Positions 7,101-28,679 are shown, counted from the stretch's first letter. The stretch: DNA of 64,000 bases from a virus (IMGVR_UViG_3300045988_174698); one strand, 5' to 3'. Numbers and translations are program-made. Notes: a model not told the origin generated them from the sequence alone.

Positions 7101-7333
7101 ATTAGTCTATGTCCCCCTTATAGGCATTCATAATAGATTTTTCCTTTCTAAGCCAAGAGCCCTCAGTTTCTGCTATATCTAGAACAGTACGGCTAATAGA
7201 TTCTTCTTCTCAATTTTGTTATCGTATAGCTTTTTATCTATACTTCTTATACTTCATTTTGTATAAGCTCAGCATATATTTTCACCTTCAGCATTATCTG
7301 TTAAGGGTAAATCACTCGTGGGTTTATTTTATT

Positions 7334-8089
7334 CTAATCTGTTATTAATATTTTATAATTGTATATAGCGTTGTATACCTGTTTTGGAAGTATATTTTTA
7401 TATTTGTTAGCATATTCCTTTAAACAAGTTTCTTTCTCTTTCTTATATGCTCTAAATGCTTCTTCAATTGTAGAAAAAGTTCCTATATGTTTTTTCTTAT
7501 TCATATAATTAATTTGAGCAATTATTTTATTGTTTTTGATTCTGACTCCTATTGGAGTATTACCTCTACATTGAAATCTTCAAGTAATAGCAGTATTAAT
7601 TTCCTTTGGGATAAAACAACAATAATTTGGAGAATAAATTTTATTCCCCTTTACCAAGAAATCTTTATCTATAACAAATGATTCGTTATAACAATTATTA
7701 TAATATCAATCCGCAAAATTCTGAAAATTTAATCATTCTTTACAAACAGTAACTCCATTTCCTCCATAGTTATTATATTCAGAAACTTTTGGACAATAAC
7801 ATCTTCCAATCATTTCTTTCCAAATTTTATAACATCGAGTTTGTTTACCGTTTTTGTCCCTAGAACTATATTGACCTACTCCAAAATAACCTGTATTGTA
7901 TACAGACGGATAATAAGGATCTTTAACAGAGCCCTTTTTTAGATTACCTAGTTCAGCAGTAATAATAGTACCTGTTTGTAAAAATTTTATTATTACATTA
8001 TATGAATCAATATATTCTAGAATGATAAAATCTCCAGAACTATTTGAAGTCATAATTTTATTTTCATAAATTTGTTTGTTATTTGTCAT
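7334..8089 (-). CDS. HNH-family homing endonuclease with a C-terminal AP2 DNA-binding domain
   Basis: ORF 7733..8089 continues through two TGAs to a TAG at 7334-7336 (frame checked). VIDKDFLVKGNKIYSPNYCCFIPKEIN is HNH_3-like. IGVRIKNNKIIAQINYMNKKKHIGTFSTIEEAFRAYKK is an AP2-type fold typical of phage homing endonucleases. Confidence 0.6.
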
Positions 8090-8264
8090 ATATCATAATA
8101 TTTTAATTAAACATAGTACAAATATACAAATTCTTTTTCAGACTCACAAACAAATTAGGTTCAAAACCTATGCGTTACACTGACTTAATATATTACTATT
8201 AAGTTTAGCACGGTATTAGCATCTCAGCCTTCACCGTTTTTGATTTATTCTATTCTACTTATTT

Positions 8265-8753
8265 CTAAGCAGACAGGCAGAATTCTACCTGCTCGTTCAC
8301 TAACATTCCTGTCTCTTTATCATGCCCGTTCAACCAGTTGAAAGTAGCCCAATCACCCTCATTAGCTGCCTGATCAACAATTTCATTAATCATTTGAGTA
8401 GTTTCAATTTCAAGATCTACGGTAATCTTAAAAGGATCTACCATATCTTCTACTTTCTTATCAAACTGCTCAATAGTAGGATAAATATACTCTGCATCGT
8501 TTTCATTTAAATATTTACGAATCCAGGAATGATGTAAGTATTCTTCATCTGCTCTTTGTTTGTAATACTCTTCAAGAATAACAAATCCTCTAACACCAAA
8601 GTAATTTGCAAAATTCATATACGCATTATGATTTTGCAATTCATGCTTAAGCTGACGAAGAAGTAGTTTTTGAATTTCAGCACTTAAAGTGCATTCACGC
8701 CTACTAACATCCTTTTTTTCTACAGGATCATTTGCCTCATTTTTAATTATCAT
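8265..8753 (-). CDS. ferritin-like (non-haem ferritin/FtnA-type) protein
   Basis: QRADEEYLHHSWIRKYL and INEIVDQAANEGDWATFNWLNGHDKETGMLVNEQVEF align with FtnA ([48 protein letters not shown]). Length of 162 aa fits a ferritin monomer. Confidence 0.6.
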   Translation of the reverse strand: MIIKNEANDPVEKKDVSRRECTLSAEIQKLLLRQLKHELQNHNAYMNFANYFGVRGFVILEEYYKQRADEEYLHHSWIRKYLNENDAEYIYPTIEQFDKKVEDMVDPFKITVDLEIETTQMINEIVDQAANEGDWATFNWLNGHDKETGMLVNEQVEFCLSA

Positions 8754-8790
8754 AAATTAGGTAATTTAAAGTATAAAACATTTCTGCTAT

Positions 8791-9153
8791 CTAGTAAATA
8801 TGGATCCTATAACTCTCCTTATGAAAGTTAAAGTTAAATTGATTTTCTAATAACCAGTAAATATCAGAATATATTGTGAATTCATGATTATTAATTACAA
8901 ATCTAAGATAAAAACTATCATAAGTAGTTAAATACCTAGTAATATCTTGTTCATTAAAATAGATAATATTTATACCCTCAAGTTCAATACCTAGATTCTC
9001 AAACTCTACTGTAAGTTCTTCACTTCCACAAACATCAATGATAGATAAGTACCTGTCAGTTTTTTTGTCAAATCCATCAATATACCCTCTCATGTGATTA
9101 ACACAAGGATACCAATGATTACCAACTCTTTTCAAAGTTAATTTCTTTTCCAT
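8791..9153 (-). CDS. hypothetical protein
   Basis: 120-aa ORF; its start overlaps the RNase H stop. Confidence 0.3.
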   Translation of the reverse strand: MEKKLTLKRVGNHWYPCVNHMRGYIDGFDKKTDRYLSIIDVCGSEELTVEFENLGIELEGINIIYFNEQDITRYLTTYDSFYLRFVINNHEFTIYSDIYWLLENQFNFNFHKESYRIHIY

Positions 9154-9155
9154 AG

Positions 9156-9626
9156 TTAATTCTGTTTAATATCTTCCTTTGGATTGATTACTGTTGCAGC
9201 AATATTAGCATAACAATCTGCAAGTTCATTAAATTTATTATTATTGTGGCCTTTTAATCAAAAGAACTTTACTTTATGAAAGTGTAATAGATTAACTATT
9301 TTAACTCATAGATCCATATTCTTCTTTGAATTATCTTGCTCTGCAATTCATCTATATACATGACCATTGTTAATACTACTAACAATATAACTTGAATCAG
9401 AATATATTTCTAAATTCCTAGGTTCCTTAAAATATTCTAAGGAGTATAGAACTCCCATTAATTCTGCTCTATTGTTAGTAGTATGTATATAACCTTGATA
9501 TAAAATCTTAATTACTTTGTTGTCCTCAGTAATTATAGAGGCATAACCCCCTTGGTCTGTTGTTGGTTTGTAACTTCCATCAGTATAGATTCTAATCATC
9601 AATAATTTCAGCATCGTCAAACTCAA
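9156..9626 (-). CDS. ribonuclease H (RNase HI family)
   Basis: IYTDGSY...GGYA..., TNNRAELMGVLYSLE and EIYSDSSYIV match RNase HI. Past two TGAs the C-terminus reads NMDLWVKIV...VKFFWLKGHNN, like E. coli NVDLWQRL...IKWEWVKGHAG. These alignments put Trp at the TGA positions. Confidence 0.75.
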
Positions 9627-10438: not shown

Positions 10439-10987
10439 TTAAGTTACTATATTTTTCATAAATGATATTCTAGCAATGTTTCGTAAATCACTAGATAATA
10501 CTTTAACAACTATATCTTGTCGGCCATTTCTTTGATAATAAGTATATAAAGACCTAGACTTATCTATACTCTTATTTGTTACCTTAGAATCAATTAGTTT
10601 AATTATGTCAGTTCGTCTACATACAATTCAATCTTTCTCTCCTTCAAATGCTATATAATCAGCCTTTCCAAATAGTCATCCAGGATTTCCTCGAACATTT
10701 TTTAGTTCTACTCAGTTGATATTATAATCTGGAGTATTATCAGCTCTACGATTTTTTTTTGCGCTCTTGATGTCAAATGTAAAAGTTCTATTATTATATG
10801 TTCATATAATATCAATATGATCATACATATCTTGATACTTAGATGGAATCTGAACAGTTCCTCCAACCTGAGATAGTAACAATTCAGAAAACTCAGATTC
10901 TTTTATCTTTCCTAATTTAGAGCAATCTATATATTTATTCATAATTGTGACCCCATTTTTCAGCTTCTTCAAATGTACTAAAAACAA
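10439..10987 (-). CDS. hypothetical protein, TGA-containing
   Basis: ORF 10802..10987 continues through four TGAs to a TAA at 10439-10441 (frame checked). Confidence 0.3.
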
Positions 10988-11198
10988 GATATTCTGGAAT
11001 CATTGTTACTATATCTTCAAAAGCATAAAATATATGAGGACCAGAATCTAAATATGAGACTATAATATCCTTAACTGTTCTAGGAGTAGTATCTACAGTA
11101 TAAGTATCTACAAAAACTCCTGCTTCAAATTGATGGGTCTTTTGACAAATAAATACTGTCTGCCCAATATCAAATTTGGTTTCTATACTAATTTTCAT
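10935..11198 (-). CDS. hypothetical protein
   Basis: 87-aa ORF. Confidence 0.25.
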   Translation of the reverse strand: MKISIETKFDIGQTVFICQKTHQFEAGVFVDTYTVDTTPRTVKDIIVSYLDSGPHIFYAFEDIVTMIPEYLVFSTFEEAEKWGHNYE

Positions 11199-11200
11199 TT

Positions 11201-11809
11201 TAGTTATCTATTATTTCAATATATCTCTGTTTAGGAGTAGTAACGTAAGGATTTTGATCTATAATAATAACTTCTATAACAGTATGTTTTCTAGTAAACC
11301 ATCGTGGTAGAAACCATTTTCGTGGTTTAATAGGTTCTTTATGAGAACTTAGAGTTATATACTTTTCATTATTATACTCATTACTTAAAGCTATTGTTCC
11401 TGGATAGGAAAGGTGTAGACAACTTCTGTTTCATTTATCTACAATACAAGTATCTAACACAAACCCAGGTTCTCTAAATATTGTATCTCTAATAACAATA
11501 GTATCTTTCTTAGAAAAATGTTCTAATTGATATTGTAACGCTTTAATTTTATTATCCTTAACTTTGTTCTCATTAGCTACTTTTTTCATTTTAAGCATTA
11601 AAGAATCGCTAAAGTATTCTAATTGCTCAATTGAAAGCTTAAATACACGATTACTTTCTTTTAATCATGAATTTTCCGCAGCATATGCTTTTTCATTATT
11701 TATAGAATTATCTAACGCAATATTCAGATTTCTAATTTTATTGGTCATAAAAATTATAGCCAATACAAGTAAAGTATAACTTAATATTCTTAAAATTATT
11801 TTTTTCATT
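11201..11809 (-). CDS. hypothetical membrane-anchored protein
   Basis: 203-codon minus-strand ORF (frame checked). N-terminus MKKIILRILSYTLLVLAIIFMT is a signal or transmembrane segment; one TGA. The plus-strand ORF 11564..11779 is its antisense. Confidence 0.35.
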
Positions 11810-13295: not shown

Positions 13296-14501
13296 TTATA
13301 AAGAAAATTTGCGAATTTTGGTTAAATAAATCTCTTTACGATATTGGTTAACTCCACCATAGTCACCATAACTCATCTGCACTTTACGAAGATGGTATAG
13401 CTTACCTCCCTCTAATTTTAATTTATCTGCTATATCCTTTGGAAAAGTAAAATCAATAACCTTGTCAACTGTTATTTTTTTATAGTTACTATCCTTTGAA
13501 TTTATAACATATATTAAGAAAGCACTTAATATAAGCAGGTACCACTTAATTTCAGAGTAATCTGTAGTGGGTCTTAAAAATCTGAATTCTACAGTTTTAT
13601 GGGCATCACCTGAAATTAAATGCATTATATTCATATTAAAATATCTACCGTGCACTTCCCACTTACGCTCCTCTGTTGAATCATATGAATTAGGTAAATA
13701 AAAACTTTGGTCATCATTATACTTATTACCAGTGAACCTTTTGTAGAATGTAGGGAGAGATGCAATACTCGGAAAAGGTTTATTGTAAGCTTTACCATTA
13801 CTTTTATAGCGTTCTGTATAGTAACTATATCTTGGTATGTACATACTAATAGACCATTGAAAATGGCACCAGAACTTACACAGACGATTAATATAACTAT
13901 TATTAATTGGAAAGTTACCAAAATGAATATGCAAAGAGCAGTTTTTATCGTAAAACGTGTATCTTTCAAGCAGTTTCAAATGCTGTTTAATAATAGGTAA
14001 ATCTATATGTGTTAATGGAAAAGTTACATATTCATGCCCATTAATTGAACCATCATACAGTGGTACTAGATTTGTATCAATACAACTTAACCAAGGTATG
14101 TTTCCTGCGGATGTTTCATATTCAAGGCCAAAGGTAAAGTCTTCAATATATGTAAATTCTTTATCAGGTATTAATTTAATATACTTAGGTTTTAAAGATA
14201 GTTTTGAAAAATTGTAACATCTATCTATTGGATAATTAAACACATATTTAGAATCTGTAATGATATTATTAGATAGTTTTAAATCTATCGTATAGCAACA
14301 AATATTATTTACCCAATATAATGGTATTTTGCAGTTCTCGCGTCTTTCCAAATAGGTAATTTTCCCTTCTATTACTAGAGGAATATTTAGTGGGTCTATT
14401 TCAAAATAACCATATTCTATATATGCGTAATCAATATAGATCACACCTCTTAGTAAGGTATCTCCAGTTTCCCACCTTTTTTTAGTATTATTGTACAGCA
14501 T
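13296..14501 (-). CDS. glutamine-synthetase-like COOH-NH2 amidoligase (Amidoligase_2-type)
   Basis: FTFGLEYETSAG (GxExE metal-binding strand), NCSLHIHFG (HxH) and TVEFRFL (ExR). These are the conserved residues of the GS-like amidoligase superfamily described in phage operons. Confidence 0.55.
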   Translation of the reverse strand: MLYNNTKKRWETGDTLLRGVIYIDYAYIEYGYFEIDPLNIPLVIEGKITYLERRENCKIPLYWVNNICCYTIDLKLSNNIITDSKYVFNYPIDRCYNFSKLSLKPKYIKLIPDKEFTYIEDFTFGLEYETSAGNIPWLSCIDTNLVPLYDGSINGHEYVTFPLTHIDLPIIKQHLKLLERYTFYDKNCSLHIHFGNFPINNSYINRLCKFWCHFQWSISMYIPRYSYYTERYKSNGKAYNKPFPSIASLPTFYKRFTGNKYNDDQSFYLPNSYDSTEERKWEVHGRYFNMNIMHLISGDAHKTVEFRFLRPTTDYSEIKWYLLILSAFLIYVINSKDSNYKKITVDKVIDFTFPKDIADKLKLEGGKLYHLRKVQMSYGDYGGVNQYRKEIYLTKIRKFSL

Positions 14502-15810
14502 CTAAATTAACAAGTCTATTAGTTATAAACTGTAAAATCTGTGTTTCTAGTACTTCAAAATCGAATGTTGTATTTTCTGCATTATTCTTGAAAATTTCAA
14601 AAGCGCTAGGAGCATAGGTATATGTTGTAGAACTTACTCCATCTTTTACATTAACTTTATCAGGAGCATTAAATAGAGTAACATATGATCCTTCCATGTA
14701 CTTCATATAATTGAAGTCTTTGTCAACAGTAGTTAAGACACCATTAATAATTCGAGGATTATATGCAAAGTAATCAATAACTTCGGGACAATAAACAGAA
14801 AGAACATCATTTGTAAAAAGGTCATCTATATTTTCAAGGAAATCATAACTTTCTTTATTGGGTAACAATCGCCCATAGAAGAAGTAGAAAGTATGTCTAT
14901 ATGCGTTAGAGCTGGCATATGCTTCGGGTACTAAATGCCCAGAAGGATAAGCTAGATACATACCGTGTGCTGGAATTTCATTTAACATATACGTACCTGT
15001 AGTTTGACTGTAATATAAGTTATTAGAGGTATATGCTGGGGAATTATCCTTATAAGAAGCACCATATACTGGTATGCAAAGGGTTCTCCTTAATTTTTCA
15101 CGATTAATATTTCTAATACAGTAAACCTTGTTATCCTTAATTCGGCATAACTTATTTACAGGAAATTCATAGATTGTTTTTTTACAGTTGATGGAATATA
15201 GAGAAGCATACATCGACGAAAAATAAAGTTTACCCTCGTTAATCATATAAACTAAAGGTCGCTCAGATTTTGTTTTGTTTTCATTATAACAAGAGCTCCC
15301 TTTGAACATGAGTACTTCTGGAGTCAAAGATCTATAATCTACCATTATAAGAACAGCACAACCTGTATATTCTTCTAGAACATCATATCCATGTTCATAA
15401 ATAATTTCTGCCAAAATTTGAGAATCAGACATACCAAGAGTATTAGGTTCTGGAAGATATTTATTAGATAATTCTCCAATATTAAGAATAGTACCATTAT
15501 GCATTAGTACAAACTCAATTTTGTTACCACGTCTAATAACAACTGGCTGAGCCTGATCTAAATTCACAGGATATCCAGGAGAGGCCTTTCGACAATGTAA
15601 TAAAGCAATAGAAGCTGACTTTGGATAATTTATACTAGTAGTAAAGTTCCTAAATAATTTTCTGTCACTGACTCCATATTCTACCTTACCATCAATAAAA
15701 ATACCACAACTATCTCCCCCTCTTTCATCGTTTAGGGTTCCAAGTATATTAAAGTGGTTTATGTTAAATTCAGTCTTTTCAGTAGAAATTATTCCAGCTA
15801 GTCCGCACAT
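14488..15810 (-). CDS. class II (Ntn) glutamine amidotransferase-like protein
   Basis: N-terminus MCGLAGII has Cys2 as the predicted nucleophile (AsnB/PurF/GlmS-type). GDSCGIFIDG follows. Confidence 0.55.
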   Translation of the reverse strand: MCGLAGIISTEKTEFNINHFNILGTLNDERGGDSCGIFIDGKVEYGVSDRKLFRNFTTSINYPKSASIALLHCRKASPGYPVNLDQAQPVVIRRGNKIEFVLMHNGTILNIGELSNKYLPEPNTLGMSDSQILAEIIYEHGYDVLEEYTGCAVLIMVDYRSLTPEVLMFKGSSCYNENKTKSERPLVYMINEGKLYFSSMYASLYSINCKKTIYEFPVNKLCRIKDNKVYCIRNINREKLRRTLCIPVYGASYKDNSPAYTSNNLYYSQTTGTYMLNEIPAHGMYLAYPSGHLVPEAYASSNAYRHTFYFFYGRLLPNKESYDFLENIDDLFTNDVLSVYCPEVIDYFAYNPRIINGVLTTVDKDFNYMKYMEGSYVTLFNAPDKVNVKDGVSSTTYTYAPSAFEIFKNNAENTTFDFEVLETQILQFITNRLVNLDAVQ

Positions 15811-16589
15811 ATTCCATAAAGTTTAATTAGATGTTCTGCCAGTACTTTATTAGATGTATTAATACACTTTTGAACTAAATCTCCTTCTGGCAAAGGAAAT
15901 CCTTCATTAAACATATCTACAGCTAACATAGTTTGTTTATAAATCATTGGAAGGTATTTGTCATTAAGCATAAAGCTACTTAGACATCTTGCTTCTACTC
16001 CCCACTCAGGACAACGGAAACTTCCTGCTTGACCATATAGAGTTCTTCTAAAAGTATCTCTATCATATAATACAGAAGGAACTCCACAGCATAGATCAAA
16101 GAACTTAATAAGCTTAACAGATGTATCAAAATTAGGGTTATCATATCCTATGTGAATGTGTGAACCTGCCACTCTTCTATTATCAGGATAACCTTGTGGC
16201 TTATCGTTTTCACACTCTGTATAAGCATCATAATCACTAGAACATCCAATTTCATTTGCTTTAGGATCAAGTAATTGATCTTCAGGCACGGGCATAGATG
16301 CACTACAACAAATATCAAGATTGTTATCGAATTGTTTAACCCAATTACGAATCCAATCTTTCATATATTTAATAGAATCTACAAATTCATTACTAGAAGT
16401 ACAAGGTGGGATATTAAATTCTCCTAAAATACAGTCAATCTCCACACCAAATCCTTTTGGCATGCCTTTAGTATATGGTTTACCTTTTTCTCCTGGAATT
16501 ATTCCAATTGCAGATACTACTTGGTTTGTTTTTGTATTAAAAATAAATAACTCGGGGTCTGCTCCAACTGTAATATTTTTAATTTTCAT
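15798..16589 (-). CDS. second GS-like carboxylate-amine ligase (GCS2/YbdK-like), tentative
   Basis: N-terminal strand ITVGADPELFIF resembles the GxExEF first strand of GCS2/amidoligase enzymes. The rest was not recognised. Confidence 0.35.
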   Translation of the reverse strand: MKIKNITVGADPELFIFNTKTNQVVSAIGIIPGEKGKPYTKGMPKGFGVEIDCILGEFNIPPCTSSNEFVDSIKYMKDWIRNWVKQFDNNLDICCSASMPVPEDQLLDPKANEIGCSSDYDAYTECENDKPQGYPDNRRVAGSHIHIGYDNPNFDTSVKLIKFFDLCCGVPSVLYDRDTFRRTLYGQAGSFRCPEWGVEARCLSSFMLNDKYLPMIYKQTMLAVDMFNEGFPLPEGDLVQKCINTSNKVLAEHLIKLYGICAD

Positions 16590-17226
16590 CTGCTATTAAT
16601 TTATCAATTATTTCATTTATTCTTATAACAATTGGTGATTCAGGTCTCATATATTCAGGATGTCCTTGGATAGCCAAACACTTTGGAAGATTTGGTCTGT
16701 CATACAAAACAATTTCAGGTTCACAAGGAGGAGACATAACATTATCTCCCTCATATATACTTGACCGATGACTAGTTGAATAAAACAAACATGTCCAATA
16801 CTTATATGGTATTATAAATGGATACTGCATTTGATGGTGTGTACTGGTAATTTCATACATTTTATTCGTACTTATCTCTGTAATAGAGTGAGTTATTCGA
16901 ATAGCATGATTTTCCACATTCTGAATAAGTATGCCACCATTCATAATACATAAATATTGACTGCCTCGGCAGATCCCCACAGCTAACTGATCAGGTCTGA
17001 TTTTCTCAAATTCTTTCTTTTCTGCGAGATCCCTTTGTAAATTAGCACAAGTAGTAGGATGAGGTTTACAGTTATACAAAGAAGGGTGTACATCTTCTCC
17101 ACCTGTAAAAATAACAATATCTGCATCGTTAATATCATCTACTAGCTCACGCTTAGTAATAAAATTAGCATAGTGTACTTGATTACCAACGACATATACT
17201 TTTTTTGTTTTTAGCATAGTATTCAT
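16579..17226 (-). CDS. class I glutamine amidotransferase / C26 gamma-glutamyl-hydrolase-like protein
   Basis: IVIFTGGEDVHPSLY and LAVGICRGSQYLCIMNGG (GxCxGxQ nucleophile elbow) and GHPEY (His of the triad). Confidence 0.55.
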   Translation of the reverse strand: MNTMLKTKKVYVVGNQVHYANFITKRELVDDINDADIVIFTGGEDVHPSLYNCKPHPTTCANLQRDLAEKKEFEKIRPDQLAVGICRGSQYLCIMNGGILIQNVENHAIRITHSITEISTNKMYEITSTHHQMQYPFIIPYKYWTCLFYSTSHRSSIYEGDNVMSPPCEPEIVLYDRPNLPKCLAIQGHPEYMRPESPIVIRINEIIDKLIADEN

Positions 17227-17881
17227 TCGCTATAAAATTAATTCCCTTGACAATTTGAGGTAATTGCTTCGAGTTAAATACTCGAAGCAAATGGCACAAA
17301 CTATTATGTTCAGCCATAATCCTACAAAAACTTTCACTATAGTTAAAGTCCCTTCTAATTAAATTAAACTGGCACTTAGGATTAATGTTATAAAATGTTA
17401 GGTTATCTAATCCTGGGCAATGACATCTTCTTCCATCATGAAACAATGTAATATAAAGTTGCATAATTTGAGTAATATCCAATTCTGGAAAGTTTGCTCT
17501 ATTTTGCCATGCAGAGTATAATAATAACCAAAACGGATTTTCGTATACATATCTAATATACATAGCACTATAGACAAAGAATCTATTGTCAGGAGCACAC
17601 CTAATTTGTAATTTGTATGAATGTGTACTCTTTACAAGTGATATTAATGTAAACCCCAGTAGTCTTGAGATTTCCTTAAAGTACTCAATTAATGTTTTCG
17701 TATCAAATGTACAGTAGTTAAGCTGAACTTGTCTACTTCGAGGCCATATAATAGTAGCATAATAATAACCATTAAATTCACCTTGAGAACATCCCCTACT
17801 AAAACAAGCCATATTTTCATAAAAGTAATTACCAGCATAGTAATTACATTTATATTCTTTTCCTCTAAAATCTAGTATCAT
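17183..17881 (-). CDS. hypothetical Cys-rich protein
   Basis: 232-aa ORF. Overlaps the GATase-I gene start by about 44 nt. Confidence 0.3.
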   Translation of the reverse strand: MILDFRGKEYKCNYYAGNYFYENMACFSRGCSQGEFNGYYYATIIWPRSRQVQLNYCTFDTKTLIEYFKEISRLLGFTLISLVKSTHSYKLQIRCAPDNRFFVYSAMYIRYVYENPFWLLLYSAWQNRANFPELDITQIMQLYITLFHDGRRCHCPGLDNLTFYNINPKCQFNLIRRDFNYSESFCRIMAEHNSLCHLLRVFNSKQLPQIVKGINFIANEYYAKNKKSICRW

Positions 17882-18608
17882 AGTACTTTTTTAAATGATT
17901 CCCATAATAAGTTATCCCAAAAGAAGCCAGAGAAGGAGCTGTATTACTTTCAACAATGATATAACTATTATCACTACACAATATATCAAAGCAGGCAATT
18001 GTGAGGTCCATTTGTTTTAATGCCTTAATACAATCACTAATTATATTTTCCCAACATACAGGTAATTTGTGTTCCTCTGTTACTAAAACAAATATTGAAT
18101 TATCAGCATGTTTATGCCATTGTACTTCAGCGTCTTGTTTCAGCACTTTTTTACAAGCATAAAAACAACCATGATGAACATCAATATGTACTCTATATTC
18201 ATTTGGGAAGAAGTAATACTTTTCAAACACGAAATCCCTTATATTAACATTATTACATAGATCGTCTAAAGATTTGGGATTATCAATATAATAAATATTC
18301 TTCCCTTTCGATGAATGTTTATGTTTTGCTATAAGAATTTTGTGCTGCATAAAAAACTTATAAATGCTTGCTTTGTTAGAAGAACTAATCCATTCACTAT
18401 GAGATACACCCGCTTTGTCAAAGGCACGCTTCATTAATATTTTATTCCCAGAAGTTTTAACTCCCTCTATAGTATTAATTTCCAAATATTTATATTTAGA
18501 AATTAAAGGAGTTGTGCTCCCTAAACGTAGTAGTACTCTTTGATTAAAAGGTATACTACGTAAAGGAGCACAACTTGTATTTGGACTGAAAACTCGAAGT
18601 TTTAACAT
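17865..18608 (-). CDS. ATP-grasp ligase (RimK/glutathione-synthetase-like)
   Basis: ILIAKHKHSSKGKNIYYI (ATP-binding lysine strand) and IIVESNTAPSL (the E-N pair of the ATP-grasp C-domain). Confidence 0.5.
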   Translation of the reverse strand: MLKLRVFSPNTSCAPLRSIPFNQRVLLRLGSTTPLISKYKYLEINTIEGVKTSGNKILMKRAFDKAGVSHSEWISSSNKASIYKFFMQHKILIAKHKHSSKGKNIYYIDNPKSLDDLCNNVNIRDFVFEKYYFFPNEYRVHIDVHHGCFYACKKVLKQDAEVQWHKHADNSIFVLVTEEHKLPVCWENIISDCIKALKQMDLTIACFDILCSDNSYIIVESNTAPSLASFGITYYGNHLKKYYDTRF

Positions 18609-18609
18609 A

Positions 18610-19152
18610 CTATAGTTCTAATGCCTTATTATAGCAGTACACAGCCAGTTCCTTCTGGGTTAACTTATTATAATCAGCAAATTCAGCCCCATGGTCCTGT
18701 AAAAGCTTTGCAATATACTGTAGTTCGTGTTTTTTTAGTTTGCTAAATTGAGTGGCCGAGAATTCTGCGACCTTCTTATCAAGAGCAATTAATTTGAGGA
18801 ATACTTTTCCAAATGGTTTATTATTAAATTTATTAATATATACCTTTTGGTCAATATTATCCTCTACTGGGATAGCTTTAGGTTCAGGGTTAGGAACAAC
18901 CTCGTCATATGGGATAATCATAAATTCAGGTACCCATATGCCTATAGATAGAAAATATGGAATATCTGGGTCATTCTTATCTACATCCTCAATAACAGCA
19001 ACATTACCAAAATAGGGAAAATCAGAAAATAAGACATATTTCATGTCTTTGTTACAATAAACACCTTCTAAGTCAGGTGCTTCCTTGAGTAGATTATCCT
19101 TAAGTAAACAATCAAGATTTTTAATGATAACTTTGTCTCCTTGTTCAAACAT
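18610..19152 (-). CDS. hypothetical protein
   Basis: 180-aa ORF. Confidence 0.3.
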   Translation of the reverse strand: MFEQGDKVIIKNLDCLLKDNLLKEAPDLEGVYCNKDMKYVLFSDFPYFGNVAVIEDVDKNDPDIPYFLSIGIWVPEFMIIPYDEVVPNPEPKAIPVEDNIDQKVYINKFNNKPFGKVFLKLIALDKKVAEFSATQFSKLKKHELQYIAKLLQDHGAEFADYNKLTQKELAVYCYNKALEL

Positions 19153-19166
19153 AACTATTTTTATTT

Positions 19167-20243
19167 TTATTTGAAAAATGATAAATATTCTAATGGACTA
19201 ACAATTCTATATTTAGTCTTTCTAAACTCTAAAAGGTCAAAAGAATCTGAATAACTCATCATTGACCTTAAGTAGTCAACGAAATTTTCACACCAATCTT
19301 GTAACTTATACAAAACTGGAACTGTGGTTTCAATACCCTCAGCAGTTTTGAGTTTTTGGTTTCCTATTTCTATCTGTGCTTTTTTAGTAGACATACCATA
19401 GTATTTACGTCTGAGTCCTAGATTTGGATCTGTAACAGGTAGTAACTCTCCACAGGCTTCTTGAGATTGTGCAAAGAGTTTTCCAACCATTACATAATCA
19501 GCTCCAAGAGCTAGTGCTTTAATAATCTTATCATAATTATCAAATCCTCCGTCCGCAATAATAAATGGAACACTTTTGTATGGATGAGTTATTGAGTTAC
19601 AACCCAAGTAAAAACCAGAGTCACCCGCTATATTAACTACTTTTGTTTCTTCAATACATTTTTCTATAGCCCGCTTTTTATCAACAACTTCCTTAATTAA
19701 GGAAGCCATTGCATAGTGTATTCCACCATTAGCAGAAGTAGTACATACAGAACCTCCCCCTACACCTATCCGTACAAAATCAATTCCTGCTAGTGAATAA
19801 TCAGCATAAGTATCAGGGTTAGCAATATTGCCCGCCATTAATGACAATCGACCTCCAAATATAGACTTTGCTTGTGAGCATAAATCAATTAACTTTAACA
19901 TGTGGCCATTAGCAATATCAACACACACATAACGAATATCATTGGTGGTATCATATATATTTTCAAAATCTGTAATAAATCTTTCAAACTCAGATAAGCC
20001 AAGTGCAACAAACGTACTTGTAGACAACTCCCATCGTTTATCATAATCTACTCCTCTTGGAATAATTGTATTGATCTTATTTCTAAGAAAAACTTCATAA
20101 TTATTCTCATTAATAACAGAATTCATAGGAGCAGTAAATAACGGCAGCATACCATCAAAGTTATATGGATTACAGTCTGCACGATGTTCTATTCTACTGG
20201 TTCTAGCTGGTACTAAACAAATATCATTTAACCCATATGTCAT
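19167..20243 (-). CDS. GMP reductase / IMP dehydrogenase family protein (GuaC-like, no CBS domains)
   Basis: RIGVGGGSVCTTSANGG matches the IMPDH/GMPR catalytic Cys loop G(I/V)GxGSxCTT. IIADGGFDNYDKIIKALALGADYVMVGKLFAQSQEACGE matches GuaC SDGGC...GADFVMLGGMLAGHEESGG. Length of 358 aa. Confidence 0.7.
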   Translation of the reverse strand: MTYGLNDICLVPARTSRIEHRADCNPYNFDGMLPLFTAPMNSVINENNYEVFLRNKINTIIPRGVDYDKRWELSTSTFVALGLSEFERFITDFENIYDTTNDIRYVCVDIANGHMLKLIDLCSQAKSIFGGRLSLMAGNIANPDTYADYSLAGIDFVRIGVGGGSVCTTSANGGIHYAMASLIKEVVDKKRAIEKCIEETKVVNIAGDSGFYLGCNSITHPYKSVPFIIADGGFDNYDKIIKALALGADYVMVGKLFAQSQEACGELLPVTDPNLGLRRKYYGMSTKKAQIEIGNQKLKTAEGIETTVPVLYKLQDWCENFVDYLRSMMSYSDSFDLLEFRKTKYRIVSPLEYLSFFK

Positions 20244-20416
20244 TTTTAATCTCTCTTAATTAGTTTATTTTTCTGTTCCTCAGTATCCCTAAATTTTTTT
20301 ATTTTTCTTTTCTTATTTAGACGAGCAATCTCTTCCTCGTACCTATTATATTTATCCAATTGATTACCTCGAATAAATTTACCCATGATAAAAAACAGAA
20401 TTTCAATTTTGATTTA

Positions 20417-21199
20417 CTATTGAATCTCTAAAGTACCTGGTTCCAGTCCAAGTTCTTTCTCGACTTCTGCGATTGTTTTCTTTACAACCTTATTCTTTAC
20501 TTTTGGCCAAGCAACATCCATTTTTGTGTAATCACTAAGTTTAAAACAGTGTGGTGTTGGAACAAAAATCTTCTTAACTTGGTAGAAACTCCCATTTTTA
20601 GGGGAATTAAAGCATCCACTTAAATAACCCTTAATTTCTCCTTTATTGTTAACATAAACAATAGCTTTAGAAGAAATAATAAATCCAAAATACTCTTGAT
20701 CTTTAACTATTAACTGTACTATTCGCCCAGGTAAAAACTCAGACTTAAAATCATTATTAAGATTAGAATCTACCTTATTATCCTCAACCTTATTTTTTTC
20801 TTTACCTAGAATCTTTTCAAACTGGTCTATAATAGATATGTCATTTGATTTTAATTCAGGTGATTCAAGTAATTTTAATAGATTCTTTTCTGATTTTAAA
20901 ATAATATCACTATATAGAGCAAGTTTATTCTCTTCTATATCATTAATACCTAACTCTTTAAGGATAGTGTTGTCATCATCTGAACAGAAGATATCACTAT
21001 CTCCAGTAAGGTAATGAATATTCTGATTATATGTAACAACATAATAAGATCTTTTATCTGTATCAATTAAGATCTTATAAGGGTGTCCTGAAAGTAATAA
21101 AGATATACTTACCTTAGGATAGTTTAATGTATATCCGTATCTACTTAAGATAAACAAAATGGTATTTAAACTGTTACCATTATATAATAAATAACGCAT
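20417..21199 (-). CDS. hypothetical protein
   Basis: 260-aa ORF. Confidence 0.3.
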   Translation of the reverse strand: MRYLLYNGNSLNTILFILSRYGYTLNYPKVSISLLLSGHPYKILIDTDKRSYYVVTYNQNIHYLTGDSDIFCSDDDNTILKELGINDIEENKLALYSDIILKSEKNLLKLLESPELKSNDISIIDQFEKILGKEKNKVEDNKVDSNLNNDFKSEFLPGRIVQLIVKDQEYFGFIISSKAIVYVNNKGEIKGYLSGCFNSPKNGSFYQVKKIFVPTPHCFKLSDYTKMDVAWPKVKNKVVKKTIAEVEKELGLEPGTLEIQ

Positions 21200-21252
21200 A
21201 ATTTGATTTTTTTGTTCTTTTTAGTTAAAAAACAGTAACAAGTGAAGGCTCA

Positions 21253-22185
21253 CTATTCTTTTACTTCTATAATTTTATATACAGAATTTTGAGTATGAAA
21301 ATGATTTTTATCTACGATTTTAGTTACAGGTGAGGTTGAGAAGCGAAATCCAAGACAAGCTCGAAACCCTACAGTTATAGGTAGACTTAAATATCCTTGA
21401 GTAAGGTACCCTTTATTGATTCCATTTGGATGATGACCTGGCTTATAATTACAAGTATCAGTATCTTCTAACTTTTCAATCTGAACTTTAGTTTGTGCAG
21501 GATAACTACACACCTCATAATATAATTCACGTACACTCCTCAAAGTTTCCTCATGGTGATCATCTGATTCAGGTATTGATCCTTCACAATCACATTTCTT
21601 TAATAGTAGTAATGCTTCGAAGTCAATACACTCTAGATTATTAGCTAACCTTAGAATAGCCGACTTGATATCTCTTTGTTTTAAAATATAAAGAGGTTGC
21701 ATGTGACACCTTACCAAAGAAAGAATAGCTCTTTTGTACTGAGGTTTAATATCAGAAATATATGTATCTAAAATATGTTCAGCAATTGGAACTCCTTTAA
21801 TTGCATGGTCCTTACAGTGGTAAAGTCCATCTTCTCCCTTTTTTGTAGTAACTGGTTTACCTATATCATGTAATAGAGCAGCAAAGATTAGAATATTTCG
21901 ATAGTCCATGTCTTGAAAAAGTACTTCATTACTGTTTTCAATATGCTTCAACATACATTTTGTAACCATACAAGTATGGGTGAAAGCGTCTCCCTCTTTA
22001 TGCCAAAGTATATTCTGAGGAGTTTCTGACAACGCTTTAAATTCAGGAATTTTTAAAAGTTCATCCCAAAAGACAATATTAGTTTTTGGATCATAAATCA
22101 TATTATATAATAAGATTATAAGAGATAATAGTAGTAACAAATAAAATAGCTGAAGATTTTGCAAAATGTATAAAAGTTGAATCAT
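21253..22185 (-). CDS. HD-domain phosphohydrolase
   Basis: IFAALLHDIGKPVTT is the HD motif; downstream His and Asp residues are present. The N-terminus is a hydrophobic segment. Confidence 0.55.
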   Translation of the reverse strand: MIQLLYILQNLQLFYLLLLLSLIILLYNMIYDPKTNIVFWDELLKIPEFKALSETPQNILWHKEGDAFTHTCMVTKCMLKHIENSNEVLFQDMDYRNILIFAALLHDIGKPVTTKKGEDGLYHCKDHAIKGVPIAEHILDTYISDIKPQYKRAILSLVRCHMQPLYILKQRDIKSAILRLANNLECIDFEALLLLKKCDCEGSIPESDDHHEETLRSVRELYYEVCSYPAQTKVQIEKLEDTDTCNYKPGHHPNGINKGYLTQGYLSLPITVGFRACLGFRFSTSPVTKIVDKNHFHTQNSVYKIIEVKE

Positions 22186-22582
22186 AATCCGACATTATTA
22201 GAGATCCTATAGTAATTGCAAATAAAAGGGCAATTGACACTATAAAAATATCTCTATACACTTTGTATGTTTTGTTATTAGATACTACCCACCCTTTAAG
22301 TTTATATGTTAATATAACACCAGGTTTGTTATGGTATATATGGTAATCTTCTGGAGTAGCCTCAAAACTAAGTATTTTATTAGTTTTTATATCTTTTGCA
22401 ATAAGATACATCTTACCATTAGTTTTATAGCCTCCAGATATCTTTTCTCCTCCTATAATCTCACATTGATATGGATTAGTATTTACATAGTTACTAAATT
22501 CAGAGTAATGTAGATTCAAACTTATAAGTATAACTACTATAGAAGGAACCCAATAAGCTAAAATTTTAGAAGGTATATCCAT
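22103..22582 (-). CDS. hypothetical membrane protein
   Basis: 159-aa ORF with two hydrophobic segments. Confidence 0.25.
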   Translation of the reverse strand: MDIPSKILAYWVPSIVVILISLNLHYSEFSNYVNTNPYQCEIIGGEKISGGYKTNGKMYLIAKDIKTNKILSFEATPEDYHIYHNKPGVILTYKLKGWVVSNNKTYKVYRDIFIVSIALLFAITIGSLIMSDYDSTFIHFAKSSAILFVTTIISYNLII

Positions 22583-22583
22583 T

Positions 22584-23006
22584 TTATATCCATGTCTTTA
22601 AAGCTTCCAAAAAAGCTGATTCTAAAGCTTCTTCATATGTATTATAATCTACTCCACTTGCATCTATACTATGAGGAGGTCTTACAATTTTCTTAGAAGG
22701 ATCTATCTGAATATCAACGATTTTATATGTCCAATATCCATGAATAGTGGGAACTATTATAATATGTATCTTATGAATATCTCTTAACCATTTTTGAAGT
22801 TTAGATTGAGTTGGAGCTAAATAATAATTATCTGTAGGATCATAAAACTTACAATTCCAAAGCACTCCTTTTTCATCATAACAAGGGCTACAATTTACAT
22901 ATCCTAATTTTGGAAATAGTTTAGATATTCTATTTCCATCCATATAATGTTTTTCCTTTGCAAGTTTAGCAGTATCAAAAGTAATATGTGATTCCATTAT
23001 TCCCAA
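22584..23006 (-). CDS. hypothetical protein, family A (paralog of 40687..41055)
   Basis: Shares N-terminus M..HxxFDTAKLAKEKHY and APTQSKLQKWLRDIHKIHIII...EEALESAFLEAL with 40687..41055. Confidence 0.4.
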   Translation of the reverse strand: MGIMESHITFDTAKLAKEKHYMDGNRISKLFPKLGYVNCSPCYDEKGVLWNCKFYDPTDNYYLAPTQSKLQKWLRDIHKIHIIIVPTIHGYWTYKIVDIQIDPSKKIVRPPHSIDASGVDYNTYEEALESAFLEALKTWI

Positions 23007-24619: not shown

Positions 24620-24802
24620 TATAGTAGTGAATTAATTATTAAGATAGCTTTTTTACTGTCATAACGACCCTTGTAATCAGATTTAGGTATAATATTCAAT
24701 ACCTTATTGACAATATTCTCACCACTAGTAGCATATAATGCTCCACTTGGATGATAAAAATCATGTCGTAAATCTACAACAATTAATGTACGCTTCATAT
24801 AG

Positions 24803-27139: not shown

Positions 27140-28018
27140 TTATAATGACATAAATTGGTTATAGTTATCCTTGTATCCTATAGAAGTATTCACAAGAAGC
27201 TCGCCATGCATGCTTCTACCAGGCATTGGCACCATAAAGTCATTTCCATATATGTTAGTTAAAACACTTAAATATACTTCTGGAGCAGGAAACATTCCTC
27301 ACTCAAATTTAAGGTAAACCTTATTGTTATAGTCTCTAGCGTTTCTAAGACTTTGTATCTTATTTGGAAATGTAAGATTACCAAATGACTCTGTGGAGAG
27401 TACATTATATCGTTGTCGTAGCTCTTGATATTTTTCTCTAAGATATAAAAGTCTAGATGTGTTTTCCTTAGAAGAATCATAACATTGTATTCTTGTTTTT
27501 ACAGCCAGTGCTTCTAGTTTAATTAAGTGAAGCTGGTGCATAAACTTTTGTCTCTCAACTAGATCATCTGGAACATTATCAAAAGGACATATATCTATAA
27601 AGATCCCTTGGTTAAAGGTAAAATGACCTTCTAAATCCTTTTTGTGAATACATGTTGTGTCACTTCTTCTTAACTTCGTACAGCAATAAAAGGTACTGTC
27701 TGTTCAGTCATTTTGAACAAAATATGGATAATTCAACTCTTTAACTGCACACTCTAAAAATCTATCATAGTCTGTTCTAGGCATAGCAATATCAATATCA
27801 TCGTCCCATGGAATAAATCCACCATGTCTGACAGCACCAAGTAATGTTCCTCCATCTAAATAGTGCTTCAAATGATATTTATCACAGATATTTTTAAACT
27901 GTCATAGCAAATCTAGCTCAACTCCTCAAAGTTCTTTTCTTTCTTTAGACACCAAGAATCCATTTTTTACTTCTGCTTCAAAAAAGTTATCTGGTAATTT
28001 AATATTTAAGTTTACCAT
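27140..28018 (-). CDS. LicD-family phosphotransferase (LicD/FKTN/FKRP nucleotidyltransferase-fold)
   Basis: Reconstructed through at least five TGAs (frame checked). [40 protein letters not shown] is the LicD signature including the DxD motif. The two standard-code ORFs 27268..27480 and 27299..27541 are fragments of it. Confidence 0.6.
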
Positions 28019-28679
28019 TAAATAAAAATTTAGCCAACTCTAAATCATCAGGACTTGTAATTTTAAAATTCATAAGTTCTCCCGAGATATATAAGCATTT
28101 ATTTCCATTATGCTCATATAAGTCAGGTAAAGTCTGATAATTATCTATATTTTTAATCTTTGTAATTATATTATAAAGGCTTCTAAGCATAAAAGTTTCA
28201 GGAGTCTGTAAGATAGCAATTGGCTCCGTTCTTACTCCAGGAACATGTAACGAACTAAGATCTTTTAAAGTGCTAACTGTTGGAATGTATGGAACAACAG
28301 CCGAATTATTAGAATCACAAGAAGACAAACATCTTGTAATTAAATTTGAAGTGAAAAAAGGTCTAACAGAATCATGAAACATAATTTTTTCAATAGAAGG
28401 ATAGTAAGTCATTATGTATTCAAGACCAGCAATTCTAGATCTTAAGCATGAGTACCCTCCTTCTATAATTTTGATATAAGAAAATGGAAAAAGCTTTCGA
28501 AGAATAGGAATATATTCAGGTAGAGTAACTATAACAATTATGTTAAACAGTCTTAACCTAACAAACTTTTCAACAGTCAAATATACTATAGGATGTCCAT
28601 TAATATCTATAAACTGCTTAGGAATATTCATTCCTACCCTAGTTCCTTTTCCAGCAGCATTAATAACTAAGGCATTCAT
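27999..28679 (-). CDS. IspD/TarI/LicC-like cytidylyltransferase (CDP-alcohol synthase family)
   Basis: N-terminus MNALVINAAGKGTRVGMNIPKQFIDINGHPI matches the MobA-like nucleotidyltransferase motif of IspD/TarI/LicC (AAGxGxRxG...PKQ). Its 3' end overlaps the LicD-like start by about 20 nt. Confidence 0.6.
   Translation of the reverse strand: MNALVINAAGKGTRVGMNIPKQFIDINGHPIVYLTVEKFVRLRLFNIIVIVTLPEYIPILRKLFPFSYIKIIEGGYSCLRSRIAGLEYIMTYYPSIEKIMFHDSVRPFFTSNLITRCLSSCDSNNSAVVPYIPTVSTLKDLSSLHVPGVRTEPIAILQTPETFMLRSLYNIITKIKNIDNYQTLPDLYEHNGNKCLYISGELMNFKITSPDDLELAKFLFNGKLKY

Follow-up and report, generated by a model that had tools for sequence, protein, structure and literature searches.

The locus described here raises the question of whether a phage gene block that combines amide-bond ligases, glutamine amidotransferases (GATases) and a nucleotide enzyme encodes a single pathway, or two sets of genes that merely lie side by side. 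The window, that is, the whole 64,000-nucleotide stretch of DNA that was analysed, belongs to a TGA-recoded crAss-like phage with a GC content of ~30%. Eight tightly packed ORFs occupy positions 13296–20243, all on the minus strand, with an HD-domain gene in addition at 21253–22185. A previous reading made from the sequence alone (the sequence-only reading) took the tight pairing of the ligases with a GMP reductase (GMPR)/IMPDH-type enzyme and an HD hydrolase to indicate a joint purine-modifying pathway. Our analysis instead favors, with a probability of roughly 0.55, an amidoligase cassette and separate nucleotide/RNA-metabolism genes, two independent things next to each other.

Gene content and predicted folds

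The features of the block are:

p1, 13296..14501, minus strand: GS-like amidoligase (Amidoligase_2, PF12224); core cassette gene
p2, 14488..15810, minus strand: class II (Ntn) GATase/amidohydrolase domain plus a C-terminal domain; core cassette gene
p3, 15798..16589, minus strand: phiEco32-like COOH-NH2 ligase type 2 (GCS2/YbdK superfamily); core cassette gene
p4, 16579..17226, minus strand: class I GATase/peptidase C26 (gamma-glutamyl hydrolase type); core cassette gene
p5, 17183..17881, minus strand: Cys-rich protein of an unnamed family; near-constant cassette partner in crAss-like and large gut phages
p6, 17865..18608, minus strand: RimK-like ATP-grasp ligase; frequent but non-universal cassette member
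p7, 18610..19152, minus strand: two-domain protein with no assigned family; C-terminal helical domain of ~70 aa
p8, 19167..20243, minus strand: divergent IMPDH/GMPR-family TIM barrel, GMP-reductase-like; lineage-specific neighbour, outside the cassette
p9, 20417..21199, minus strand: neighbour with no assigned family; conservation limited to close relatives
p10, 21253..22185, minus strand: HD/HDIG-domain phosphohydrolase; lineage-specific neighbour
TGA-free island, 13296..22997, minus strand: 12 consecutive genes with zero in-frame TGA

The ORFs of the sequence-only reading were all present on the minus strand, and the operon-like packing was borne out: successive genes overlap by 14 nt (p1/p2), 13 nt (p2/p3), 11 nt (p3/p4), 44 nt (p4/p5) and 17 nt (p5/p6), or are separated by 1 nt (p6/p7) and 14 nt (p7/p8). 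Compared with close relatives, all ten block genes are under purifying selection (dN/dS 0.09–0.74). Translation table 4 was the right choice for the window overall; the block itself contains no in-frame TGA. The window also holds a LicD and IspD-like cytidylyltransferase pair, typical surface-glycan modification genes.

Profile searches upheld the proposed folds (amidoligase, GATases, ATP-grasp, IMPDH/GMPR and HD), and all of the quoted motifs were found in the translations. p1, with the motifs GLEYE, HIH and EFR, scored 24.2 bits against the Pfam Amidoligase_2 cut-off of 22 and matched phrog_2443 (1.5e-8); it also has an uncharacterised N-terminal extension of ~115 aa. In p2 (GATase_6, 4e-12; MCGLAGI motif), an Ntn domain with an N-terminal Cys2 (residues 1–240) is accompanied by a novel C-terminal domain (262–440) with weak little-finger-like similarity. 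p3 carries VGADPELF and reached 30.8 bits with COOH-NH2_lig (PF14395; cut-off 25) and 8.9e-55 with phrog_3815, its match to the YbdK family being weak. p4 matched Peptidase_C26 (1e-12) and phrog_7218 (6.2e-29), and its catalytic residues are the Cys in GICRGSQ and the His-Glu in QGHPE. In relatives, the p3 gene is interrupted by an insertion immediately 5' of the SHIHIGY motif, and the p4 gene directly after GICRG by an insertion that holds an HNH-like ORF; homing-endonuclease-bearing insertions exactly at these catalytic motifs mark the codons concerned as strongly conserved. p6 matched phrog_2599 (6.2e-21) and the NCBIfam models rimK_fam (1.2e-7), MptN (5e-7) and CofF (8.5e-3), but Pfam RimK, at 18.5 bits, fell short of its cut-off of 21. 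Neither p5 nor p7 had a library match in the profile searches. The C-terminal domain of p7 nevertheless recurs in other crAss-like phages as a short separate ORF immediately 5' of the ATP-grasp gene (domain HMM matches at 6553–6765 of contig L020 and 4627–4869 of contig L027); no p7 counterpart was found beside the Aeromonas or Pseudomonas phage cassettes. A reduction of the locus to ordinary purine salvage genes without ligases was rejected because, by profile searches, the ligases are real.

p8 matched the IMPDH/GMPR family (PF00478) at 5e-35, and its best PDB matches were 3r2g and human GMPR2. Like GuaC and GMPR2, it is a TIM barrel that lacks the CBS subdomain and the longer IMPDH flap, having a short flap of GMPR length, and it retains the GSVCTT Cys loop (within GVGGGSVCTT) and the TAEG Glu. 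Unlike them, it is divergent: identity to cellular GMPRs is 23–27%, and the top NCBIfam model, GMP reductase, has an equivalog cut-off of 397 bits, of which p8 reached 112, hence its substrate could be other than GMP. p10 matched HD (1.7e-8), HDIG (1.7e-7), two tRNA_CCA models (2e-7 and 1e-6) and phrog_2244; its nearest similarity is to the HD domain found in CCA-adding enzymes and GlnD, not to dNTPases. Its true start is likely near Met29; the alignment with a relative in locus L006 begins at residue 25. Family searches with p9 gave no significant match.

Distribution of the cassette and its neighbours

Deposited phage genomes with a relative of the p3 ligase number 313, and many gut metagenome contigs carry one as well. 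Neighbourhoods were counted within ±10 kb of the ligase in 80 viral loci bearing a COOH-NH2 ligase, a phylogenetically dependent set with numerous near-duplicates, in which Amidoligase_2 (p1) and the Ntn GATase (p2) were present in 80/80 loci, the C26 GATase (p4) in 79/80, the p5 family in 74/80, the ATP-grasp ligase (p6) in 47/80 and p7 in 18/80. The constant core in this phage group thus comprises the p5 family, the C26/class I GATase, the COOH-NH2 ligase type 2, the Ntn GATase and Amidoligase_2, with the RimK-like ATP-grasp ligase as a common extra. Positions 13296–18608 are a phiEco32-type phage amidoligase cassette, and p7 is a lineage-specific add-on. As a block the cassette is not new: it is widespread in phages and was already described computationally in 2009.

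The neighbours are distributed differently. An IMPDH/GMPR-like gene occurred in ten of the 80 loci, an HD gene also in ten and p9 in eight; nine of the ten IMPDH-bearing loci come from the window's own clade, their COOH-NH2 ligases sharing 63% identity or more with the window's. Looking for the neighbourhood in other phages, as the sequence-only reading had proposed for recoded ones, showed that the full set of ligases, GMPR-like gene and HD gene is essentially limited to one crAss-like sublineage. The cassette stands without IMPDH or HD in crAss-like contigs (L020, L022, L026 and L027), in Aeromonas phage BUCT695 and Pseudomonas phage PA11, and in the LUZ24-like phage UFV-P2 (PMC3890496). Two loci from close relatives (L026 and L078) retain the cassette together with p7 and ATP-grasp, but have no reductase, and cr108_1 has the same gene set, likewise without IMPDH or HD, its reductase lying 15 kb away beside a thymidylate synthase.

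Conversely, a p8-like gene was found in 60 phage records, mostly from Lak megaphages and Listeria, Thermus and Staphylococcus phages, and also in phage G; p8 falls in a phage clade together with relatives from Lak megaphages, cr108_1 and further huge gut phages. Among the matches listed (40 of each), cr108_1 was the only record common to ligase and reductase, and the organism tallies of the 313 ligase and 60 reductase-like records did not overlap apart from cr108_1; neither the Lak megaphages nor phage G nor the Listeria, Thermus and Staphylococcus phages appeared in the ligase tally. Three loci carrying a reductase-like gene (L015–L017) had no ligase genes within ±10 kb. The restriction of the GMPR-like and HD neighbours to a small lineage makes a joint purine-modifying pathway unlikely, and the claim drawn from their tight pairing is unsupported. 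A lineage-specific functional coupling may nonetheless exist, given that the adjacency is conserved down to ~45% p2 identity (L028) and that the genes share one TGA-free island.

Expression timing and candidate roles

In-frame TGA was absent from the 3202 codons of the island, compared with 93 occurrences among the 11,550 codons of predicted genes outside it (~25 expected in the island; Poisson P ~9e-12). This pattern fits the report that recoding is found mostly in late genes (Yutin et al., 2021, PMC7886860). With no in-frame TGA, the cassette is translatable with the host's standard code, and we infer that it is expressed early, ahead of the late code switch. The block could alternatively have been acquired recently from a standard-code phage.

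The nearest functional relatives are RimK, MptN and CofF for p6, YbdK/GCS2 for p3, C26 gamma-glutamyl hydrolases for p4, and EgtC and the GlmS glutaminase for p2. All of these act on glutamyl carboxylates or amides, which supports a similar chemistry for the cassette. By this family resemblance, two or three ATP-dependent carboxylate-amine ligases would join glutamate-type carboxylates to amines successively, and the two GATase-fold proteins would either provide glutamine-derived ammonia for amidation of a carboxylate or trim gamma-glutamyl bonds in the manner of PuuD and EgtC. The product might be a small glutamyl- or amide-linked compound, or a short tail on some acceptor. p8 probably shifts purine pools toward A: it would convert GMP to IMP and ammonia, tilting the pool to adenine nucleotides for a genome with 30% GC. 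The IMPDH/GMPR-like and HD genes would then be neighbours by chance within one sublineage. The sequence-only reading was correct that phage operons of ligases, GATases and ATP-grasp enzymes had been predicted computationally with no known product: the literature retrieved cites only Iyer et al. (2009), and an experimental product was not found in the literature searched.

As relayed in PMC10580990 and PMC11706807, Iyer et al. (2009) made the only published functional proposal: modification of the host envelope (a peptidoglycan-like peptide or surface polymer), or a secreted or secondary metabolite, leading to superinfection exclusion. The LicD and IspD-like pair elsewhere in the window would suit an envelope target. 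In bacteria, moreover, the amide-forming ligase and GATase pair MurT/GatD amidates peptidoglycan stem peptides. We nevertheless regard this role as unlikely, as signal peptides or membrane segments were not apparent in the cassette translations, a Mur-ligase-like component is absent, and several unrelated phages embed the cassette in replication/nucleotide modules, not lysis/envelope ones. Equally doubtful is a tailing activity, in which the ligases would add glutamates to a protein C-terminus (RimK-like) or to a cofactor tail such as that of folate (CofF/MptN-like), with the C26 enzyme, from the gamma-glutamyl hydrolase family, remodelling the latter. RimK, MptN and CofF are alpha-L-glutamate ligases acting on glutamate-terminated substrates, p5 has weak structural similarity to the Pup ligase PafA and the depupylase Dop, and the small, conserved p7 C-terminal domain or ORF that always precedes ATP-grasp in crAss-like versions could be a substrate or adaptor. 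However, with ATP-grasp lacking in 33 of the 80 loci, the central step must lie elsewhere; an acidic C-terminus is not conserved among p7-like proteins, which the proteobacterial phage versions lack, and no folate-metabolism genes were seen adjoining the cassette in the loci inspected.

The integrated pathway fares poorly. Here, the GMPR/IMPDH-like enzyme would activate C2/C6 of a purine nucleotide, the ligases and GATases would link it to an amino acid or peptide, and phosphates would be trimmed by the HD protein; the product would be a hypermodified DNA base, a signalling molecule or the modified nucleotide itself. The genes are indeed adjacent, co-directional and nearly contiguous, they all fall within the single TGA-free island, and the order HD-IMPDH-p7-cassette is retained in relatives L013, L018 and L028. 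Other crAss-like phages place the cassette amid replication genes, between primase and UDG; uncharacterised amidoligase/GATase-domain genes are co-associated with thymidine-hypermodification clusters (Lee et al., 2021, PMC8989533); and the little-finger-like similarity of p2 would agree with such a role. Yet the reductase is missing from 70 of the 80 cassette loci, L026 and L078 with their p7 and ATP-grasp genes included, and from the inspected deposited phage genomes outside cr108_1, where it is distant; it occurs without the cassette in Lak megaphages and others, the HD protein is not dNTPase-like, and DNA-modification hallmark genes were not found in the block. Least probable is auxiliary metabolism that boosts host glutamine, glutamate or glutathione-type pathways during infection: amidoligase, GATase, GGCT and glutathione-synthase-like genes of a Planctomycetes phage were read as nitrogen-assimilation AMGs (PMC10945688) and every enzyme family here touches glutamine or glutamate, but similarity to housekeeping orthologues is remote (tens of bits for NCBIfam equivalogs whose cut-offs are 140–600), phage-only families are present (PF14395 and the p5 family), the GATase has its novel C-terminal domain instead of any known synthase domain, and conserved multi-gene synteny favors one dedicated pathway.

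Relation to known systems

The nearest known system to the cassette, in the two-module arrangement that we prefer, is the phiEco32-type neighbourhood (PF14395 plus PF12224) described by Iyer, Abhiman, Burroughs and Aravind (2009) and carried by LUZ24-like, PA11-like, phiEco32-like and N4-like phages and by crAss-like cr108_1. Both are phage-borne, lie in the early/replication region and encode, in a single co-directional run of genes, the COOH-NH2 ligase type 2, Amidoligase_2, the Ntn GATase, the C26/GATase I protein and the RimK-like ATP-grasp enzyme, five shared families; the order of genes in the window's cassette is that of cr108_1 gp028–gp034. LUZ24-like versions also encode a GGCT/AIG2 cyclotransferase, and none was detected in the block here, whereas crAss-like versions add the p5 family and the p7-type small domain. 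What sets the window's sublineage apart is that GMPR-like and HD genes adjoin the cassette, which lies in a TGA-free stretch within a recoded genome.

Thymidine-hypermodification clusters (5-HMUDK, aGPT-Pplase, PLP and radical-SAM enzymes) are likewise multi-enzyme, phage-encoded and situated in the replication region. Their kinase/pyrophosphorylase families were not matched by the ten block genes or by 20 other window ORFs scanned, and, unlike those clusters, the cassette stands alone. The bacterial pathways closest in chemistry are PuuA/PuuD (a GS-like gamma-glutamylputrescine synthetase and a C26 hydrolase), glutathione synthesis (GCL and an ATP-grasp synthetase) and EgtA/EgtC of ergothioneine synthesis, in all of which gamma-glutamyl amide bonds are made or broken, as the cassette is predicted to do. 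The cassette differs from them in lacking orthology, with scores far below the family cut-offs, and in bringing together three ligases, two GATase-fold proteins and phage-only families in one operon.

A widespread ligase and amidotransferase cassette

Eight ORFs on the minus strand fill 13296-20243 in the translations of the window, and six of the seven junctions between them (p1-p8) overlap or are no more than 1 nt apart, the remaining one being a 14-nt gap. Two more ORFs follow on the same strand, the second of which is the HD gene. Every motif named in the sequence-only reading was recovered in the translations, and profile searches confirmed its fold assignments (p1, p2, p3, p4, p6, p8 and p10).

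Genes of the block, the evidence for each assignment and the occurrence of relatives among 80 viral loci. Each locus encodes a relative of the COOH-NH2 ligase and was taken with 10 kb of flank on either side; every window protein was scored.
13296-14501, minus: p1, Amidoligase_2 (PF12224), a GS-like second amidoligase (24.2 bits against a cut-off of 22; phrog_2443, 1.5e-8); relative in 80/80 loci
14488-15810, minus: p2, Ntn class II GATase with its N-terminal nucleophile Cys present, plus a C-terminal domain; 80/80
15798-16589, minus: p3, phage phiEco32-like COOH-NH2 ligase type 2 (PF14395; 30.8 bits against a cut-off of 25; phrog_3815, 8.9e-55, full length covered); defines the sample
16579-17226, minus: p4, class I GATase/C26 thiol hydrolase (Peptidase_C26, 1e-12; GICRGSQ and QGHPE motifs, Cys-His-Glu triad); 79/80
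17183-17881, minus: p5, Cys-rich protein; 74/80, with at least two copies in 20
17865-18608, minus: p6, RimK-like ATP-grasp (phrog_2599, 6.2e-21; rimK_fam, 1.2e-7; Pfam RimK, 18.5 bits, below the cut-off of 21); 47/80
18610-19152, minus: p7; 18/80
19167-20243, minus: p8, IMPDH/GMPR barrel, the "reductase" (PF00478, 5e-35); 10/80
20417-21199, minus: p9; 8/80
21253-22185, minus: p10, HD/HDIG domain; 10/80

Since the Pfam RimK score falls below its cut-off, the ATP-grasp call rests on the PHROG and NCBIfam models. The protein also scores below the subfamily and equivalog cut-offs (rimK_fam, 31 bits against 143; MptN, 29 against 350; CofF, 15 against 300), and, as judged from these profiles, its resemblance to the RimK/CofF/MptN alpha-L-glutamate ligases is one of fold and subfamily level only. 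Neither p5 nor p7 had any match in Pfam, PHROGs, NCBIfam or PADLOC, and a PADLOC search of the block matched no defence system, save for generic HD matches of p10. Profiles of p3 and of the C-terminal domain of p2 found no match among PDB sequences. In a comparison with close relatives, dN/dS was below 1 in all ten genes. A scan for sigma-70 promoters and terminators gave no enrichment over shuffled sequences and was uninformative for a Bacteroidota phage. The block is real and its annotation is correct.

Relatives of the COOH-NH2 ligase are present in 313 of 50,697 deposited phage records, mainly of Pseudomonas, Escherichia, Vibrio, Aeromonas and Proteus phages; gut metagenomes add hundreds of protein clusters. 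In the window the cassette is a single co-directional block of abutting or overlapping genes, and the closest deposited genome, crAss-like phage cr108_1 (Steigviridae; protein identity 45-46%), has the same order: gp034 (Amidoligase_2-like), gp033 (GATase II), gp032 (COOH-NH2 ligase), gp031 (GATase I), gp030 and gp029 (two unknowns) and gp028 (ATP-grasp), lying between UDG and primase. Aeromonas phage BUCT695 and Pseudomonas phage PA11 carry the same enzyme set adjoining replication genes, as does the LUZ24-like phage UFV-P2, which has a GGCT-like gene in addition (PMC3890496). Across the 80 viral loci the constant core consists of the p5 family, the C26 GATase, the COOH-NH2 ligase, the Ntn GATase and Amidoligase_2. 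The ATP-grasp enzyme, which has no relative in 33 of the 80 loci, is therefore dispensable for the function of this core.

The ligase block is thus a further example of the widespread phiEco32-type phage cassette, known computationally since 2009; the name of the PF14395 family itself derives from the phiEco32-like phage context. In the available text of the citing papers, the functional ideas for the cassette (cell-wall modification or superinfection exclusion, secondary metabolites, and peptide tags) are all credited to computational work by Iyer et al. (2009). The sequence-only reading, which held that such operons had been predicted computationally and that their product was unreported, agrees with the literature that we found: it cites only the 2009 prediction, and the searchable literature contains genome descriptions and AMG speculation with no experimental product of the cassette.

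We also noted insertions in two cassette genes of the relatives. The C26 GATase gene is interrupted immediately 3' of GICRG by 0.26-1 kb, and the COOH-NH2 ligase gene immediately 5' of SHIHIGY by 0.34-1.1 kb. In metagenomic locus L002, the insertion in the C26 gene (8636-9627) holds a reverse-strand HNH-like ORF (8734-9468) and that in the ligase gene (10454-11553) a LAGLIDADG-like ORF (10557-11072). Such splits are also found in L003, L004, L009-L011, L018, L020 and L027; the window copies are intact. These insertions look like homing-endonuclease introns at catalytic motifs. The term intron is drawn from the endonuclease ORFs, because Rfam returned no group I or II intron model on the two L002 insertions. 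In the window, a ferritin-like gene appears to lie in two pieces (8229-8753 and 7120-7209), and the ~1 kb between them holds a 251-aa ORF (7334-8089), probably another mobile insertion.

The reductase and HD genes beside the cassette

The reductase is a protein of 358 aa that has no CBS subdomain. Its catalytic Cys loop, GVGGGSVCTT (G-S-x-C-T-T), aligned with the loop of GMPR2, a Glu lies within TAEG, and the flap is short, of GMPR length, lacking the extra length seen in IMPDH; aligned with its best solved relatives, human GMPR2 and 3r2g, the protein reads unbroken through the flap (YYGMSTKKAQIEIGNQKLKTAEG). The best NCBIfam models are GMP reductases, yet the top score is 112 bits against an equivalog cut-off of 397 (NF003470), so the protein is GMPR-like and cannot be filed as an orthologue; IMPDH models scored 69-89 bits against cut-offs of 480-780. 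Its clade is common to crAss-like, Lak and other huge gut phages at 33-40% identity (LR745206, LR756500-LR756504, MK250015-MK250029). Identity to cellular GMP reductases is only 23-27%, which makes the protein a gut-phage-specific branch of the IMPDH/GMPR family. By its similarity to these enzymes it would most likely reduce GMP to IMP, an activity that would make sense alone in a phage of 30% GC because it moves guanine nucleotides toward the adenine pool.

The sequence-only reading had proposed a joint purine-modifying pathway, because an HD hydrolase and an enzyme of GMPR/IMPDH type are so tightly paired with the cassette. The co-occurrence on which this depended is not conserved: the IMPDH-like gene and the HD gene each have a relative in only 10 of the 80 cassette loci, and all but one of the ten loci with the IMPDH-like gene come from the clade of the window itself, with a ligase of 63% identity or more. 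The reductase is missing from two loci in or close to that clade, L026 and L078, which still have p7, the ATP-grasp gene and the cassette. Conversely, contigs found via the reductase at 47-60% identity (L015-L017) are without ligase genes within 10 kb, and in cr108_1 the reductase lies 15 kb from the cassette, adjoining thymidylate synthase. A reductase-like gene is present in 60 deposited records (Lak megaphages, other huge gut phages, phage G, and Listeria, Thermus and Staphylococcus phages). Against the 313 ligase records, cr108_1 is the sole common one among the records listed, and the organism tallies of the two sets do not otherwise overlap. Adjacency of reductase and cassette is retained down to ~45% p2 identity (L028), which points to an old arrangement inside one lineage. 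Collectively, the cassette and the reductase clearly exist without each other, and each presumably works alone. While looking for the neighbourhood in other phages thus bore out a widespread cassette, adjacency to the reductase and HD genes proved to be confined to one lineage, and the pairing is a lineage-specific neighborhood rather than a conserved functional unit.

The HD protein is most like the HD domain of CCA-adding enzymes and GlnD, and 12 tRNA genes lie in its minus-strand block; nothing that we found ties it to purine dNTPs. In L018 (1-2085) and L028 (1-2047), an NAD-salvage set (NAPRTase, NadE/NAD synthase, NMNAT-like, YqeY and NUDIX) lies directly upstream of the HD-IMPDH-cassette genes. 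The same genes were sought in the window, where only a 20-aa YqeY-like remnant was found (24622-24681); the set has been lost there. NAD-salvage genes beside HD and IMPDH genes fit a general "nucleotide and cofactor" neighborhood.

The idea of purine modification, which had made the block look special, is not supported. An integrated pathway of this kind in the present sublineage is very unlikely, with at best about one chance in ten. We regard as highly improbable the fuller proposal that the sublineage recruited the reductase, the HD protein and the cassette into one pathway yielding a purine nucleotide or DNA base substituted with an amino acid or a glutamyl group, and that the cassette in general, with its p5 family and novel p2 C-terminal domain, serves to modify nucleic acids or nucleotides, its product having gone undetected since 2009.

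A TGA-free island in a recoded genome

The window has a GC content of ~30%, and its closer relatives, contigs of 100-170 kb from IMG/VR and Logan, show 83-100% identity. TGA is required as a sense codon by many window genes, for example with 11 in-frame TGAs in 51988-54240, in agreement with the earlier proposal of table 4 recoding; such recoding is already known in crAss-like phages (PMC7886860, PMC12386605). The 12 consecutive genes of 13296-22997, including the whole cassette and p8-p10, comprise 3202 codons, none of them TGA. At the frequency seen elsewhere in the window, where the other predicted genes hold 93, one would expect about 25 (P ~9e-12). Recoding is reported to be mostly restricted to late genes (Yutin et al., PMC7886860), so that the simplest reading of the island is a set of early or middle genes that can be translated with the host code. 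The alternative is that the block was recently acquired from a standard-code phage, which would also leave it free of TGA. On the simpler reading of host-code translation, the island is probably expressed early.

Between 23642 and 43685 on the minus strand, long ORFs are sparse and the 12 tRNA genes (Arg, Cys, Ser, Asn, Ala, Thr, Gln, Met x2, Leu x2 and Lys) are found; none of these 12 has the anticodon TCA of a suppressor tRNA. Further genes were noted elsewhere in the window:
27140-28018, minus: LicD-family phosphotransferase (Pfam, 2e-39), with four TGA to be read as Trp
27999-28679, minus: IspD-like cytidylyltransferase (4e-27), overlapping the LicD gene
32023-33216, minus: 397-aa SPFH/Band 7 protein (Pfam, 7e-11; phrog_11908) with a hydrophobic N-terminal segment
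47597-48358 and 50906-51688, plus: DnaD/replication-initiator-like genes, flanking a switch in strand bias and GC skew at ~46-47 kb

The LicD and IspD-like genes form a pair for activating and transferring a CDP-alcohol, of the type usually seen in the decoration of teichoic acid, capsule or LPS; such cargo is unusual in a crAss-like phage.

Predicted chemistry and comparison with known systems

The nearest characterised relatives of the cassette enzymes are RimK/MptN/CofF, YbdK/GCS2, GS-like ligases, C26 gamma-glutamyl hydrolases, and the EgtC and GlmS glutaminases. All of them form or cleave amide bonds at glutamate or glutamine, and hence the best inference is a glutamyl or amide-linked product. 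Two or three ATP-dependent carboxylate-amine ligations would build such a product, with the GATase-fold proteins either supplying ammonia or trimming gamma-glutamyl bonds, and these reactions probably take place early in infection. The candidate acceptors, which we treat as rivals, are a small molecule, a cofactor tail, a protein, an envelope precursor and a nucleic acid. A conserved small acidic substrate protein encoded upstream of the ATP-grasp gene was sought across phage groups and rejected: the C-terminal domain of p7 is found only in the crAss-like group, and an acidic tail is not conserved in it.

The p5 protein, the "Cys-rich unknown" of the sequence-only reading, belongs to an unnamed family; among 1.84 billion proteins it has 88 representative clusters. 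This family is a near-constant partner of the C26 GATase, COOH-NH2 ligase, GATase II and Amidoligase_2 genes of crAss-like and large gut phages, and it is often duplicated along with the C26 gene, for example at 865-2224 and 8619-10014 of L022.

Few multi-enzyme modules of tailed phages that lack an assigned product are as widespread as the cassette. Identifying its product would explain a function common to therapeutic Pseudomonas and E. coli phages and to abundant gut crAss-like phages, a question no more testable via the window than via cassette-bearing phages already in culture. What is added here is modest: the commonness of the cassette in crAss-like and large gut phages, the unnamed p5 core family, the dispensable ATP-grasp enzyme and the TGA-free island.

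Among known systems, thymidine hypermodification clusters include kinase and pyrophosphorylase genes (Lee et al., 2021, PMC8989533); by contrast, neither a 5-hmdU DNA kinase nor an aGPT-pyrophosphorylase is encoded by the ten block genes or by the 20 further window ORFs scanned. The reductase shares with GMP reductase (GuaC/GMPR) the barrel, the Cys loop, the short flap and the lack of CBS, but falls short of the equivalog score. The phiEco32-type cassette is matched by the window in both ligases, both GATases and the ATP-grasp enzyme, all in one block in a tailed phage.
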